29,037 nucleotides of DNA from a virus (lineage: Duplodnaviria > Heunggongvirae > Uroviricota > Caudoviricetes), in the IMG/VR virus record IMGVR_UViG_3300045988_046105, positions 1 to 29,037 of that record; one strand, written 5' to 3'. Both the position numbers and the translations under genes were made by a program. The notes beneath the pieces were generated by a model. That model was not told the origin of the DNA. It did not search any database and worked only from the letters and a program-made list of their open reading frames with translations. Within the stretch, counting starts at the first letter, position 1, and each line of letters begins with the position of its first letter. Of the stretch, positions 3,779 to 27,328 are shown piece after piece.

Positions 3779-3855
3779 TGGCGTGGCATGCAGGATTCGA
3801 ACCTGCGACCAACCGCTTAGAAGGCGGTTGCTCTGTCCAACTGAGCTAATGCCAC
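3779..3855 (-). tRNA. tRNA-Arg (anticodon UCU), 77 nt, CCA encoded
   Basis: Hand-folded reverse complement GTGGCATTAGCTCAGTTGGACAGAGCAACCGCCTTCTAAGCGGTTGGTCGCAGGTTCGAATCCTGCATGCCACGCCA: 7-bp acceptor, 4-bp D stem, 5-bp anticodon stem, loop CUUCUAA, 5-bp T stem with TTCGAAT loop. Confidence 0.9.
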
Positions 3856-4176: not shown

Positions 4177-4193
4177 CTTACCTGAAGGGTAAT
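4177..4193. promoter_or_regulatory. operator-like palindrome CTTACC-TGAAG-GGTAAT (site S6) upstream of the portal operon
   Basis: Read directly; sits in the ~420-bp non-coding region 3856-4282 about 90 bp upstream of the first structural-operon ATG. Confidence 0.4.
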
Positions 4194-21154: not shown

Positions 21155-21694
21155 TTACCAAAACTTGTACCACGGGGATTTATCCTTCAATGGACAATCC
21201 TTCCATCGTGTGGCCAACCATTCATATTCTTTAAAATATGTGTTTATGTTTTCTTTTTCTCTAATGGCTTGTATAAGAGGTAGCGCAATCTGATAGTTAT
21301 TTACAACGGAGCTGTAAAATACTTCCTTAATCATGGTCTCATCATAAGTTTTCCGCTTCACGCTCACAGCCATGCGTTCGTAGAAACCTAGACAGTAAAT
21401 TATTTCTCTCTTCTCTGTCTTTTCTTCATCCGTAAGATCAGCCTGCCCATTGCTTGGATACATATAAGAGCGGAATGATTTGTTCGATTCGTGAATGCGG
21501 CGCATAGTAGATAGGCCTTTCTTATAATCTACATCAAACCTGCTTTCACCAAGGAATACTGAAGTGTGTACTTTTCTCGCTGTATTTACATTATAAATAA
21601 TAGTAGCGATAGCTATGAACAAGCCAAGCGAAACCGCGACTGCACTTACGATTTGAGCCACAGCCATGGCAAATTGCATTTCTTCACTTAACAC
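21155..21694 (-). CDS. membrane-anchored protein with ~150-aa predicted cytoplasmic domain (candidate exclusion/abortive-infection factor)
   Basis: GTG 21694 with GGAGA SD 6 nt upstream (alternative ATG 21679). One long N-terminal TM helix followed by basic residues. AT-rich. No family recognised. Confidence 0.55.
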   Translation of the reverse strand: MLSEEMQFAMAVAQIVSAVAVSLGLFIAIATIIYNVNTARKVHTSVFLGESRFDVDYKKGLSTMRRIHESNKSFRSYMYPSNGQADLTDEEKTEKREIIYCLGFYERMAVSVKRKTYDETMIKEVFYSSVVNNYQIALPLIQAIREKENINTYFKEYEWLATRWKDCPLKDKSPWYKFW

Positions 21695-21822: not shown

Positions 21823-21839
21823 ATCACCCGTGAGGTAAT
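21823..21839. promoter_or_regulatory. operator-like palindrome ATCACC-CGTGA-GGTAAT (site S7) overlapping predicted -10/+1 of the 21155..21694 promoter
   Basis: Read directly; minus-strand promoter TGTACA-N18-TACTAT predicted by eye. Confidence 0.4.
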
Positions 21840-21903: not shown

Positions 21904-22596
21904 TCAGAAGAACCCTGCTTTGTCGTTGATGTACTCCGCGTGCGTCTGGATATCACGCAGGCATTTGCTCACACCAACGATGTAGCAGAACATGGTGGTC
22001 AGCTCCGCCGCCGCGCCCGATACATCGTGCCCGTCTTCCTGTAACTGGTTCAGCAGATTCATCAGCAGTGAGTTTTCCGTCAGGCCGAGAACACCAGACG
22101 GCGAGTGAATCAGGCTGCGGTAGCCGGGCTTCAGTGGGGCGCTGTAGGTTTTGTTCTCTATCTTCATTGCCTGCATCACTGCTGATGCTGTGGCGTTGGC
22201 TACCTGGTCGGCAACCATCTTTATGCGTTCTTCCTGCGGGAGCGAGTTTTTAATGTAACTTCCGGTGCGGCGGATCTGAGGAAGAACCTCACCTGTAACC
22301 CATTCAAGAAATCTGAATGCTCTCGTTCCCTCAGTCATTGCCTCTTTGCAACGCAGAATAAGGATGTAGAGACCTGATTCTGAAACGATGGATAGTTCTT
22401 GTATTCCACCAGGGGTCTGTATTGAATACAGCCCCTTTTTGTTCCAGCCTTTTTTATCAAGTTTTCTCGCTTGTGTAACATCAATATTCAAAGCATTGCA
22501 CACATCTTTGGTGACAAACCAAGGTTCTCCGTCAATCATGAACATACGGATCTGGCAGGATGACTCAAAGGAAAAGATGGAAGGTTTGGTATTCAT
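21904..22596 (-). CDS. Bro-N domain protein with distinct ~80-aa C-terminal domain (antirepressor-like)
   Basis: ATG 22596 with AAGGTGA SD (track ORF extends to 22641 via non-ATG start). N-terminus FESSCQIRMFMIDGEPWFVTKDV...GLYILILRCKEAMTEGTRAFRFLEWVTGEVLPQIRRTG matches the Bro-N pattern (recollection); C-terminal domain is paralogous to 23743..24000. Confidence 0.75.
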   Translation of the reverse strand: MNTKPSIFSFESSCQIRMFMIDGEPWFVTKDVCNALNIDVTQARKLDKKGWNKKGLYSIQTPGGIQELSIVSESGLYILILRCKEAMTEGTRAFRFLEWVTGEVLPQIRRTGSYIKNSLPQEERIKMVADQVANATASAVMQAMKIENKTYSAPLKPGYRSLIHSPSGVLGLTENSLLMNLLNQLQEDGHDVSGAAAELTTMFCYIVGVSKCLRDIQTHAEYINDKAGFF

Positions 22597-22745
22597 GGCG
22601 ATCACCTTTGTAGTTAGGTTAATCACCACCGCTGAGACCAATCAGATGGTGGTGAACTGTGCAGAGTTGGTCTTACCGGCTACAAAGGAACCCGGCGCAC
22701 CTTTCGGTGCCCCCACACAGCCCACCATAGAATAGGTGCGCTTTA

Positions 22746-22843
22746 CACATAAAAAAACCGCTTATGCGGCATATGTGCCTCTGTAGTAATCCGGGAGACC
22801 AATCCCGGCACTGGATTTTGCCAGTGCCCGATTACTATGGCAC
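22746..22843 (-). ncRNA. structured 5' leader / candidate small RNA upstream of Bro-N gene, ending in hairpin plus U7
   Basis: Nested helices: GTGCC(22775-79)/GGCAC(22839-43) and GTAATC/GATTAC enclose two stem-loops (CCGGGA-N6-TCCCGG; GGCACTGG-N6-CCAGTGCC); then CCGC-N4-GCGG plus U7 (22751-22769). The 69-aa ORF over this region has no ATG and spans promoter elements. Confidence 0.35.
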
Positions 22844-22862
22844 AAGAGGAGTGCGATGTAAA

Positions 22863-22879
22863 TTTACCGCAAAGGTAAT
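22863..22879. promoter_or_regulatory. operator-like palindrome TTTACC-GCAAA-GGTAAT (site S1) overlapping -10/+1 of predicted Bro-N promoter
   Basis: Read directly; minus-strand promoter TTGATT-N18/19-TATCAT predicted by eye. Confidence 0.45.
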
Positions 22880-22955
22880 GATAAGCGCGGATAAATATTA
22901 AAATCAACCGTATTTGGTTGATTGCGTTTAACGCTTGATCACCTGAAAGCAAGAT

Positions 22956-22972
22956 ATTACCTTTAAGGTAAT
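22956..22972. promoter_or_regulatory. operator-like palindrome ATTACC-TTTAA-GGTAAT (site S2) just upstream of RBS of 22992..23720, plus half-site ATCACC-TGAAA at 22938-22948
   Basis: Read directly; perfect 6-5-6 dyad. Confidence 0.45.
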
Positions 22973-22991
22973 GTTATTGTGAGGAAAAGCA

Positions 22992-23720
22992 ATGGAAGTT
23001 TTCTGGATAGTTGTTGGTGTGGTTGCGGTGATTATTTACGTTATCAACCAGAACAAGACTAAGATCTCTGATCGTACGGTCGTTAATCATAACAAAACGA
23101 TAAAGACCGAAGATGGGGAGATAACGATTAATCGTACACAGGTGATAGAACACACCTCTACTCAGTTTCAAAAAACTGGAGGTAATGCGCCTAATATTTC
23201 CGCACCTCCTGCTTATGATAGTGCGGTAATCCAGACATATTATAAACAGCAGGAGTTAGCAAAAGAGAGGCAACTGATTCAGCCAAAGCCGTTTACAGCT
23301 GAGCTTCCACCTGGAGTGTCAATGCGTCCGGCATATCATGGAAGATTCCCTGGTGATGACATATCGTCTCAGTCATCTAAAAAAGCACCTCAGGCAGTAT
23401 CAGAGCCAGCAAGAATACCTTCTGTATCGCCGCCAAAAGAAGAATCAGCTAACAGAGTTTCAAGTGGTAGCAAGCAGTGCTTGCGATGCAGAATAAACCT
23501 ACCATATGAAAAATTCAGGAAATCGTCAAAAAATCCAGATGGATTGACTAAGTGGTGTGCAAGGTGTCTCGATGGCCCAAAGAATACACGCCATATGAAG
23601 TGGTGCCCAATTTGTAATGTCCGCAGAAAACGAACAAGCTTTTACCCTAATAATCAAAATGCGGATGGCTTAATGGCATGGTGCAAAACGTGCTGGGACG
23701 AGCACAAAGCGAAACGATAG
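22992..23720 (+). CDS. membrane-anchored protein with Pro-rich linker and tandem C-terminal zinc-ribbon-like repeats
   Basis: SD GAGGA 6 nt upstream; N-terminal TM helix; two repeats of C-x2-C-x17/18-(P/A)DGL-x3-WC-x2-C (CLRC...PDGLTKWCARC and CPIC...ADGLMAWCKTC). Confidence 0.6.
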   Translation: MEVFWIVVGVVAVIIYVINQNKTKISDRTVVNHNKTIKTEDGEITINRTQVIEHTSTQFQKTGGNAPNISAPPAYDSAVIQTYYKQQELAKERQLIQPKPFTAELPPGVSMRPAYHGRFPGDDISSQSSKKAPQAVSEPARIPSVSPPKEESANRVSSGSKQCLRCRINLPYEKFRKSSKNPDGLTKWCARCLDGPKNTRHMKWCPICNVRRKRTSFYPNNQNADGLMAWCKTCWDEHKAKR

Positions 23721-23744
23721 GCCGCTCTTGCGGCCTTTAAATTT
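23720..23744 (+). terminator. terminator hairpin between convergent genes
   Basis: GGCCGC-TCTT-GCGGCC followed by TTTAAATTT. Confidence 0.5.
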
Positions 23745-24000
23745 ACCGGGTTTGTTTTCGTAATTGTTCGGCACAATAGTCGAGATGTGTTTGCAGATCC
23801 CGCATAGACATCTGTGAGCTGGTGACGTAGTTAATCAGTGCAGTCAGTTCGGCAAGTGGGCCATCGACATTAAATCCATCCTTATCGAGATCCCGGAGTA
23901 ATTTCATCAAGTGCGATCCCTCCACCAGTGACCTGACGCCTCCCGGCGTGTGAATCCTTTCGGTAAATCCGTCTTCCAGTGGATAGTGATACCGCTGCAT
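23743..24000 (-). CDS. small protein (85 aa) paralogous to the C-terminal domain of the Bro-N protein; predicted SOS-inducible antirepressor-like factor
   Basis: ATG 24000 with GGAGA SD 8 nt upstream (track ORF starts further upstream at a non-ATG). Roughly 45 percent identity by eye to the Bro-N C-terminal region. LexA-box-like palindrome 22 bp upstream. Confidence 0.6.
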   Translation of the reverse strand: MQRYHYPLEDGFTERIHTPGGVRSLVEGSHLMKLLRDLDKDGFNVDGPLAELTALINYVTSSQMSMRDLQTHLDYCAEQLRKQTR

Positions 24001-24075: not shown

Positions 24076-24092
24076 ATTACCTGAAAGGTAAT
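24076..24092. promoter_or_regulatory. operator-like palindrome ATTACC-TGAAA-GGTAAT (site S3); half-site TTTCAGGTAAT at 24132-24142
   Basis: Read directly; perfect 6-5-6 dyad between the small LexA-box gene and the tailspike gene. Confidence 0.45.
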
Positions 24093-26914: not shown

Positions 26915-27328
26915 GTGGAAAACATGTCAGCTCAACTAACCAGTGAAACTTTAAATCAGTGGCTTAGCATGAGTTCTCTGGCGGCGGTGATAGCAGGAGC
27001 TCCTCCTGAGGTTGCTTTGGGGGCTTTGGCTGGGGCGGTAATTTTTGTTACCTCTGCGGTAGAGTATCCTATTCGTCGTCGTGTACTCTTGTCGATGCTT
27101 AGCTTTCTCTGCGGCCTTCTTTTTTATAAACCAGCAGCATCAATTCTTATCGGCATAGCCAGCCTGATCCCTACCATCACGCAGGACTCTTTTGAAAAAG
27201 GGATTGTTTTCTCAGCTGGCGCATTCGTGTCAGCAATTGTTGCTGTGCGTATTGGTATATGGCTCTATCACCGTTCCGATAATCCACGCGAGTTAATTCC
27301 GGGGAGAAAAGACGATGGTAACGCATGA
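26915..27328 (+). CDS. holin-like membrane protein
   Basis: 137 aa, 3-4 predicted TM helices, charged C-terminus; two in-frame starts (GTG 26915, ATG 26924); position upstream of endolysin. Confidence 0.5.
   Translation: MENMSAQLTSETLNQWLSMSSLAAVIAGAPPEVALGALAGAVIFVTSAVEYPIRRRVLLSMLSFLCGLLFYKPAASILIGIASLIPTITQDSFEKGIVFSAGAFVSAIVAVRIGIWLYHRSDNPRELIPGRKDDGNA

Follow-up and report, generated by a model that had tools for sequence, protein, structure and literature searches.

The closest described counterparts of the locus analysed here are the immI region of phages P1 and P7 and the isrK region of Gifsy-1. In the curated annotation of P1, the C1 operator Oc4 and the promoters P2c4 and P1c4 are followed by the boxes a1 and b1, the antisense RNA c4, the boxes a2 and b2, the icd frame and the antirepressor gene ant, with a1 and b1 being labelled only as 'putative' target sites. 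The C4 RNA of P1 is released from its precursor by RNase P. Members of the isrK family, in turn, are expected to have their own promoter and a primary transcript of about 77 nt, and to bind Hfq.

For the IsrK of Salmonella, both the 5' end and the 77-nt length have been mapped experimentally (Padalon-Brauch 2008, PMC2330248). In Gifsy-1, the isrK promoter drives the transcription of the antirepressor gene anrP, with some transcripts stopping at the IsrK terminator and some reading through into the antirepressor mRNA; this read-through RNA is not translated, and IsrK supplied in trans raises the translation of anrP 139-fold (Hershko-Shalev 2016, PMC4825925). The helix between IsrK and 'orf45' was defined by the compensatory mutants G28A/C162U and G31A/C159U, a processed RNA named STnc1160 lies downstream of IsrK, and the mechanism requires the translation of 'orf45' coupled to that of anrP (PMC4825925). 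The authors of that work call IsrK a structural homologue of the SeqA RNA of P4 (PMC4825925). P4 immunity (seqA - CI RNA - seqC) resembles the present locus in that a processed small RNA is flanked on both sides by copies of its own target within one leader transcript. However, P4 CI causes premature transcription termination, and controls replication genes rather than an antirepressor.

The DNA examined here, which we refer to as the window, is a stretch of 29,037 nucleotides from a virus of the Caudoviricetes (IMG/VR record IMGVR_UViG_3300045988_046105). A sequence-only reading of it had flagged positions 22746-22880 as a structured leader RNA ending in a terminator, placed between an operator-covered promoter and a Bro-N gene. 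Since the Bro-N gene is encoded on the minus strand, the leader must be read on the minus strand, where the structured element is indeed found. The structured leader is real, but it is already explained by a copy of the known small RNA IsrK and by the C4 and antirepressor layout described for phage P1.

This identity was obtained by scanning the whole window against Rfam with its curated thresholds, and three matches resulted: isrK, C4, and an unrelated tRNA. The isrK model (RF01394) matches 22827..22751 on the minus strand over its full length, positions 1-77, with 74.7 bits (cut-off 50, E 1.7e-14), and the C4 antisense RNA model (RF01695), also in full, matches 22732..22645 on the same strand with 78.6 bits (cut-off 45, E 4.8e-14). 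These two matches make the flagged interval IsrK, and make the 'further hairpins' that had been described ahead of the Bro-N gene the C4 RNA. A more permissive scan added c4-a1b1 (RF03163, 'a1, b1 targets of C4 antisense RNA') at 22840..22788, with 39.9 bits (E 9e-9), which does not reach the gathering score of 46.7 bits; that cut-off is passed by 5 of 10 phage loci and by P1 (51.0 bits). The stretch of P1 running from P1c4 to c4 scores 51 bits with c4-a1b1, and 35 bits, below threshold, with isrK, a match that includes a hairpin followed by a U run. The same permissive scan gave a plus-strand lysM-TM7 match (18 bits, E 0.74), which was rejected as a chance hit. The sar RNA of P22 immI is antisense to ant, whereas the RNA described here is sense to ant; sar, which we take to be modelled as RF00262, had, if present in the library, no match in the window at the gathering threshold, nor any with E up to 1 within 22560-23000.

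Beyond the scores, the locus has features by which the c4-a1b1 and isrK families are recognized: the adjacent C4 RNA carries a' and b', the complements of a1 and b1, and the middle part of IsrK is complementary to the downstream read-through RNA, ahead of an antirepressor gene. That the flagged interval is an unannotated copy of the prophage small RNA IsrK, preceding a C4 antisense RNA and an antirepressor gene, is near certain as far as IsrK and C4 are concerned. Passing the curated thresholds of two Rfam families with the gene order of P1 immI and Gifsy-1 isrK, the element is a plain member of an already known system. Its parts are as follows:

22751..22827, minus strand: IsrK-family small RNA of 77 nt (Rfam RF01394), made up of two 5' hairpins, an unpaired linker and an intrinsic terminator
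22808..22827, minus strand: IsrK hairpin 1, GCACUGG-CAAAAU-CCAGUGC, 91.6% paired in 53 loci
22792..22807, minus strand: IsrK hairpin 2, CGGGA-UUGGUC-UCCCG, its loop presenting box a1 (UUGGUCU, 22802..22796)
22778..22786, minus strand: box b1, CUACAGAGG, situated in the IsrK linker, with the C4 loop b' as its complement
22751..22770, minus strand: intrinsic terminator GCCGC-AUAA-GCGGU followed by seven U, from sequence and fold
22645..22732, minus strand: C4 antisense RNA homologue (Rfam RF01695), with a 17-bp closing stem and two hairpins
22624..22654, minus strand: hairpin CACCACC...GGUGGUG with box a2 (UUGGUCU, 22641..22635), holding the second motif copy GAUUGGUCUC
22594..22613, minus strand: box b2, CUACAAAGG (22613..22605), overlapping the Shine-Dalgarno sequence AAGGUG, then the ATG (22596..22594)
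21904..22596, minus strand: Bro-N antirepressor gene of 230 aa, the regulated gene

Several E. coli chromosomes contain a copy of the locus with 100% identity, and a near match is present in 482 of 5426 complete E. coli genomes (about 9%); the copy in UTME-9 is identical to that of the window, and the one in VR50 is 99.1% identical. Its closest phages are TL-2011b, phiV10, phiv142-3 and Phi05_2388, all of them Uetakevirus or epsilon15-like, with Stx phages, Gifsy-1 and APSE-1 among the more distant matches. The isrK-C4 pair was found in all ten related phage loci examined, the two elements lying 20-26 nt apart, and the antirepressor gene comes next in every annotated one of these ten loci (the ten include Gifsy-1, phiV10, TL-2011b, Stx phages and APSE-1). 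In RefSeq, the gene of this locus is annotated as a BRO-N domain protein and the IsrK/C4 element is left unannotated; this annotation was taken from the record of E. coli UTME-9, whose collinearity with the window is limited to the surroundings of the locus and does not extend through the full 29 kb. The gene product matches Pfam Bro-N (E 1.8e-13) and PHROG 130, 'anti-repressor Ant' (E 3.5e-51). Taken together, isrK, c4 and ant probably form, in this order, a P1 immI-like operon carried by an E. coli prophage of the phiV10/epsilon15 (Uetakevirus) type, with IsrK representing the 'a1/b1' element that opens the operon and competing for C4, so that translation of the antirepressor is freed.

The conservation of these parts was evaluated on a family alignment. 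Viral contigs were scanned for the C4 pattern, giving 76 distinct genuine loci, which were reduced to 51 at <93% identity; the window stands in for one of these, whose sequence is the same, and with the addition of APSE-1 and YYZ-2008 a total of 53 loci were aligned with MAFFT. The 77-nt IsrK has a folding energy of -26.4 kcal/mol (z -2.8), and its minimum-energy fold consists of exactly the three hairpins. The two adjacent stem-loops (22827..22808 and 22807..22792) and the terminator-like hairpin with seven U that had been noticed beforehand are therefore the constituents of IsrK. Hairpins 1 and 2 are 91% paired in the 53 loci, with compensatory changes, and in hairpin 1 five of the seven pairs have changed on both sides. 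A single-stranded stretch of 21 nt separates hairpin 2 from the terminator, whose hairpin abuts the U run in 51 of the 53 loci when each sequence is folded singly; this count replaces the 53% pairing of the terminator helix on the MAFFT alignment, which results from misalignment. The C4 element starts 18 nt after the U run, and the Bro-N start codon, placed by the sequence-only reading about 150 nt downstream, begins at 22596, 155 nt after it. The stems of C4 are 96-100% paired with many compensatory changes, and the 3' bases after its 17-bp closing stem are ACCA-like, an arrangement compatible with processing by RNase P. Over all the intramolecular helices of IsrK and C4, pairing reaches 91.8%, with 20 pairs changed on both sides and none of 500 shuffles scoring as high.

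Upstream of IsrK, the sequence offers two promoter candidates and a palindrome:

22834..22862, minus strand: isrK promoter at a conserved position, with -35 TTTACA (22862..22857), N17 and extended -10 TGcCATAGT (22842..22834)
22878..22907, minus strand: promoter-like TTGATT-N18-TATCAT, matching 9 of 12 consensus positions
22864..22878, no strand assigned: palindrome TTACC-N5-GGTAA, putative operator, at -51..-37 from the IsrK +1
22957..22971, no strand assigned: the palindrome again, in a second copy located 21 nt ahead of a divergent 242-aa gene (22992..23720)

The sequence-only reading had chosen the upstream of these promoters, TTGATT-N18-TATCAT, as the origin of a roughly 120-nt RNA. That site does exist, but just downstream of it TTTACA-N17-CATAGT, with its upstream TG, is an equally good match to the consensus, and only this second promoter is kept in all 53 loci: its -35 has on average 4.7 of 6 matches, its spacer is 17 or 18 nt, and in 53/53 the distance from the end of its -10 to position 1 of the isrK model is 6 nt. 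Promoter-like matches as such are not above chance in this region, with 3 found in 800 nt for 1.8 +/- 1.4 expected. We therefore predict from the sequence that transcription starts near 22827, from the sigma-70 isrK promoter, and that the RNA is 77 nt long. The palindrome is flanked by the -10 of the promoter-like site on its upstream side and by the -35 of the isrK promoter on its downstream side. Its sites in the window amount to five perfect copies and three with one mismatch, for 0.46 expected. At the isrK promoter it occupies a fixed position in 8 of the 53 loci, -48 in phiV10 and -51 in the other seven; these loci come from at least three unrelated upstream contexts, and phiV10 retains the arms but has the central 5 nt inverted.

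These observations bear on the model in which an RNA of about 120 nt is started at the operator-covered promoter (TATCAT, 22883..22878), folds into a functional three-way junction, and needs an antitermination factor to let transcription reach the Bro-N gene. The promoter-like site is present, in each of the eight palindrome loci the first T of the palindrome is also the last base of a -10-like hexamer even though their upstream flanks are unrelated, and P1 itself has tandem c4 promoters, the upstream one overlapping the C1 operator. The three-way junction is also the minimum-energy fold of the 135-nt stretch, which folds better than its shuffles (-49.1 kcal/mol, z -4.3, 0/200). The covariation by which the junction was to be judged, however, upholds its two inner hairpins (RNAalifold, with compensatory changes) and not its outer helices: AGUAAUC/GAUUACU is 51% paired among the 53 loci, as compared with 42% in shuffles and 37-45% when slid, and one of its strands is the -10 of the family-wide promoter, which lies inside the proposed RNA. 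Moreover, most family members do not have the upstream element, the mapped RNA of Salmonella is 77 nt long (PMC2330248), and neither an antitermination factor nor a binding site for one was identified. As a general account, this model appears improbable; the conserved promoter predicts 77 nt, and neither the 120-nt species nor the junction is a feature of the family. Within the phiV10-like subgroup, where the upstream promoter is plausible, the fixed palindrome, the abutting hexamer and the parallel with the tandem promoters of P1 make a longer species of about 121 nt, starting near 22871, possible. By analogy, TTGATT-N18-TATCAT may be a second, operator-covered promoter equivalent to P2c4 of P1.

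The case for IsrK acting on C4 is carried by the boxes. The sequence GAGACCAATC occurs exactly twice in the 29 kb, for 0.03 expected, at 22795-22804 and at 22634-22643; the repeat had been recognized before, with its second copy placed one base off, at 22635-22644. By sequence, its two copies represent the boxes a1 and a2, whose complement is a' (AGACCAA, 22673..22667), a single-stranded stretch in the junction of the C4 RNA. In a comparison of eleven sequences, joint changes are seen at three sites, namely a1 in the loop of IsrK hairpin 2, a' in C4, and a2 following C4. A second trio behaves in the same way, consisting of b1 in the IsrK linker, b' in the loop of C4 hairpin 2 (CCUUUGUAG, 22688..22680), and b2 in the ribosome-binding region. 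Thus, a1/a' is UUGGUCU/AGACCAA in the window, UUGGCGU/ACGCCAA in phiV10 and Gifsy-1, UUGAGAC/GUCUCAA in APSE-1, and UUAGCAC/GUGCUAA in YYZ-2008; the b box of phiV10, next to its a box UUGGCGU, is ACUAAAAGG.

In the 53 loci, a1:a' is 99.2% paired, with two-sided changes in 6 of the 7 pairs; for a':a2 the pairing is about 90%, also with compensatory changes. The helix of the a2 hairpin itself says little either way, being 96% paired but nearly invariant; its 5' strand doubles as the 3' strand of the C4 closing stem. For the b boxes, the pairing of 48-56% counted on the MAFFT alignment was dropped because the b loops differ in length and fall out of register, and duplex energies of cognate and non-cognate boxes were used instead. 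The means over the 53 loci are:

b':b1 duplex: cognate -11.7, non-cognate -4.5 kcal/mol; window -14.1
b':b2 duplex: cognate -12.2, non-cognate -5.7 kcal/mol; window -12.0
a':a1 duplex: cognate -11.1, non-cognate -5.9 kcal/mol; window -9.6
a':a2 duplex: cognate -9.9, non-cognate -4.0 kcal/mol

Cognate duplexes are thus 5-7 kcal/mol more stable, and for all four box pairs none of 5000 permutations reaches the cognate mean. Such joint change also argues against the reading of the two stem-loops as an element of the HK022 put type, which would act in cis to make RNA polymerase resistant to terminators with no pairing between RNAs. Two adjacent stem-loops just downstream of a promoter bear a superficial likeness to put. 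However, the hairpin-2 loop, as one of three pairing boxes, co-varies together with the linker with two other sites by Watson-Crick complementarity, which would be unexpected for an RNA that binds the polymerase, and the element has a terminator of its own behind it, which does stop the homologous RNA. A put-related family was absent among the matches of the window to Rfam, a library that may hold no put model. We regard this explanation as extremely improbable.

The boxes are highly variable, with at least 19 distinct a' and 40 b' sequences in 51 combinations among the 53 loci, and close relatives of this prophage differ by one box swapped at a time. High variability together with joint change is what would be expected of immunity specificity, and as part of the whole explanation the box sequences are likely to be determinants of specificity (heteroimmunity).

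The same boxes connect the two literatures on this system. In the numbering of the Gifsy-1 locus (L003), G28 and G31 fall in the a1 box, C159 and C162 fall in the a' box of C4, and the first AUG of 'orf45' (A107) corresponds to the conserved AUGGUGGG with which the closing stem of C4 begins. The experimentally validated pairing of IsrK is therefore the a1:a' interaction of the P1 type, and 'orf45'/STnc1160 is C4. This link is made only by the names of the Rfam families: the 2016 paper on Gifsy-1 never mentions P1 c4 (PMC4825925), a 2025 review lists IsrK and c4 RNAs separately, and Tree et al. 2014 mention neither of them. The present locus shares with Gifsy-1 the two 5' hairpins, linker, terminator and promoter distance of IsrK, the C4-type element and antirepressor gene that follow, and the pairing of the hairpin-2 loop with the downstream element, through the positions that compensatory mutations have validated in Gifsy-1. 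Contrary to Gifsy-1, a is UUGGUCU here instead of UUGGCGU (b differs too), a putative palindromic operator is found at the promoter, and the module lies beside the tail-spike gene of a phiV10-like podovirus instead of downstream of a Q antiterminator gene.

With P1 and P7 immI, the locus has in common the whole order of operator, promoter(s), a1, b1, terminator-like hairpin, c4, a2, b2 and antirepressor, a C4 RNA above the cut-off, and two boxes that are each present three times. The sequence-only reading had indeed considered a system like P1 c4 controlling ant; the system was the right one, but the flagged RNA was the wrong component of it, since the c4 homologue is the next element downstream. 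The differences concern the operator, an asymmetric C1 site in P1 and the TTACC-N5-GGTAA palindrome here, the P1 Ant, which is not a Bro-N protein of the same length, and the end of the operon. In P1 the icd frame stands between b2 and ant, and ant is repressed through the translation of icd, whereas here b2 sits directly on the ribosome-binding site of the antirepressor gene, 8 nt before its ATG, so that a2 and b2 occupy the ribosome-binding region as in immI of the P1/P7 type.

No icd-like frame was found between the target boxes and ant. The only candidate, the ORF starting at the conserved AUG (22728), has 28 codons, ends 45 nt before the ATG of ant, and is not conserved in length: it spans 3 to 47 codons in the 29 loci in which it closes within the extracted stretch, and has no stop there in the other 24. 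For this reason, 'orf45' of Gifsy-1 is rejected here as a conserved protein-coding frame, and no frame of that type reaches the antirepressor start as it does in Gifsy-1. Such a short and length-variable ORF means that the coupling step of Gifsy-1 is not transferable, and that translational coupling is unlikely here. Instead, C4 probably occludes the ribosome-binding site of the antirepressor directly in this prophage.

By analogy with P1 and Gifsy-1, we infer both the direction and the details of the regulation in this prophage. The isrK promoter would start an RNA near 22827, and a stop at the terminator (22770..22751) would give the 77-nt IsrK, while read-through past this terminator would continue into C4 and the mRNA of the Bro-N antirepressor. 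C4 would then probably be released by RNase P, as in P1, with an RNA of about 80 nt (22730..22647) as the expected product; like the start site and the length of IsrK, this processing is something that we infer for this prophage. Free C4 would pair with a2/b2 and block the translation of the antirepressor, so that the prophage stays repressed. Since IsrK copies the target boxes, it would compete for C4: in cis, the IsrK boxes of the read-through transcript could pair with a'/b', and in trans, the short IsrK could titrate or displace C4. The removal of C4 would turn the translation of the antirepressor on, as described for IsrK and anrP in Gifsy-1. The earlier idea of a terminator-gated leader fits in this Gifsy-1 sense, as a choice between stop and read-through, but nothing points to a dedicated antitermination factor.

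Folding of the 243-nt read-through RNA agrees with the pairing in cis: in its minimum-energy fold a1/b1 are paired with a'/b', matching 'structure A' of Gifsy-1. Cofolding of whole molecules gives almost no net gain (ddG -1.8 for IsrK with C4, 0.0 for C4 with the leader), and full-length duplex energies are only marginally better than those of shuffles (25/500 and 52/500). Since the method misses loop-loop contacts, the cofolding is not evidence either way, and the case rests on the co-variation of the boxes and not on thermodynamics.

A different use of the same parts has been proposed by the Gifsy-1 authors by analogy with seqA/CI/seqC of P4 (PMC4825925). In a mechanism of this type, a1/b1 would serve chiefly as cis sensors within the nascent leader, and the pairing of C4 with a1/b1 and a2 would enforce termination at the IsrK terminator. 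In this way C4 would restrict, by transcription, both its own production and that of the antirepressor, with the short RNA being a by-product. The geometry lends itself to this: b1 ends only 7 nt before the terminator stem, the last two bases of b1 (GG) can, in the window, join a GGCA-CAUA-UGCC hairpin competing with that stem, and the terminator is kept in nearly all the loci. However, RNAalifold, run on 52 sequences, recovered only hairpins 1 and 2, and no conserved alternative or anti-terminator pairing was found in the IsrK linker. In Gifsy-1, constitutive STnc1160 enhanced, and did not reduce, the growth arrest mediated by IsrK, and IsrK in trans raised transcription only 8-fold, far below its effect on translation (PMC4825925). 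The overlap of b2 with the ribosome-binding site in most loci also points to translational control. Attenuation of the P4 type is hence unlikely to be the main mechanism, and competition of IsrK for C4, acting on translation, is the reading retained here.

The observation that was originally made on this leader is thus partly confirmed, and its interpretation is partly supported. What had been flagged as a 'structured leader' belongs to curated RNA families as one of their ordinary members, and adds little that is new. A further reading, which we find doubtful, is that the boxes form a combinatorial address code in which IsrK is a diffusible 'anti-antisense' RNA switching on only those co-resident antirepressors that match its boxes, with the phiV10-like module being tied to a coordinating operator protein; in this connection, ATTACC-N5-GGTAAT recurs near the 85-aa gene by the tail-spike gene and in the portal and terminase regions. 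If true, one DNA-binding protein would coordinate the control of the antirepressor with other genes across the phiV10-like prophage. Within the retained reading, a target box lying on the ribosome-binding site of the antirepressor, with no coupled upstream frame, would make this prophage a simpler system in which to test the action of IsrK and C4.

Near relatives of the window locus (L110, L022, L119 and L005), compared with window positions 22576-22841, diverge from it one box at a time. One of them has the b box of the window together with an a box reading UUGGCGU, and another keeps both the a and b boxes of the window and has a different C4 hairpin 1. These differences suggest that the specificity boxes are exchanged as modules among near relatives. 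A different kind of change is seen in L022, a close relative (L022:1206-1283), where IsrK hairpin 1 is inverted (GGAUUUUGCC versus GGCAAAAUCC), with its loop reverse-complemented and its stem retained. Separately, a single viral contig (L052:9640-11222) carries three isrK-C4 units in tandem, spaced by 656 bp, with an aligned reading-frame start after each one and with a and b boxes that differ from unit to unit.

Phage P1 has its own IsrK-like unit (L132:218-312, corresponding to positions 48217-48311 of the P1 record), located between P1c4 and c4, and consisting of two hairpins bearing a1 and b1, followed by a hairpin with a U run. This unit scores 35 bits against the isrK model, which is below the threshold, and the annotation of the P1 record across it consists of the a1 and b1 sites only.

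At the 3' end of C4, the CACCACC that forms the 3' strand of the closing stem can alternatively pair with a downstream GGUGGUG (22624-22654, minus strand), and the loop of the resulting hairpin then holds box a2. Such re-pairing is a possible structural switch between precursor and processed C4. In the YYZ-2008 locus, all three strands of the closing stem and the alternative helix carry matching changes; since the helix with the a2 loop is invariant apart from this case, co-variation is little informative here.

The genes encoded around the antirepressor module, together with a tRNA gene found elsewhere in the prophage, are the following:

3782-3855, minus strand: tRNA gene (Rfam tRNA, 73.3 bits), with the terminase region on one side and the portal region on the other
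21155-21694, minus strand: gene for a DUF4760 protein (E 8e-31), immediately 3' of the antirepressor gene
22992-23720, plus strand: divergent 242-aa gene (PHROG 6762), with a weakly zinc-ribbon or endonuclease VII-like C-terminus
23743-24000, minus strand: 85-aa ORF, homologue of phiV10 gp24 and epsilon15 gp19

The 85-aa ORF duplicates the Bro-N antirepressor's C-terminal domain as a free-standing protein, and the two proteins share a match to PHROG 450 (E 1e-47 and 3e-37). Between this gene and the antirepressor module lies the 242-aa gene which, being present in TL-2011b and missing from phiV10 and phiv142-3, looks like an insertion. The slot 3' of the antirepressor gene has the appearance of a variable cargo site; in the otherwise similar prophage of UTME-9, an E. 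coli record, a YafO-family toxin is annotated in place of the DUF4760 protein.

The palindrome (A)TTACC-N5-GGTAA(T) is present in the window in five perfect and three one-mismatch copies, against 0.46 expected:

1013-1027, 1031-1045, 4178-4192, 21824-21838, 22864-22878, 22957-22971, 24077-24091 and 27048-27062: palindrome copies

These sites include the isrK promoter and positions 5' of the divergent 242-aa gene and 5' of the 85-aa gene adjoining the tail-spike gene, with others close to the portal gene and within the terminase region. The palindrome looks like the putative operator of a dispersed regulon. On the minus strand, the copy at 24077-24091 is followed by TTGCAA, in parallel to the TTTACA that follows the isrK copy, and therefore the same operator-plus-(-35) design as at isrK may also drive the 85-aa gene (24000..23743).
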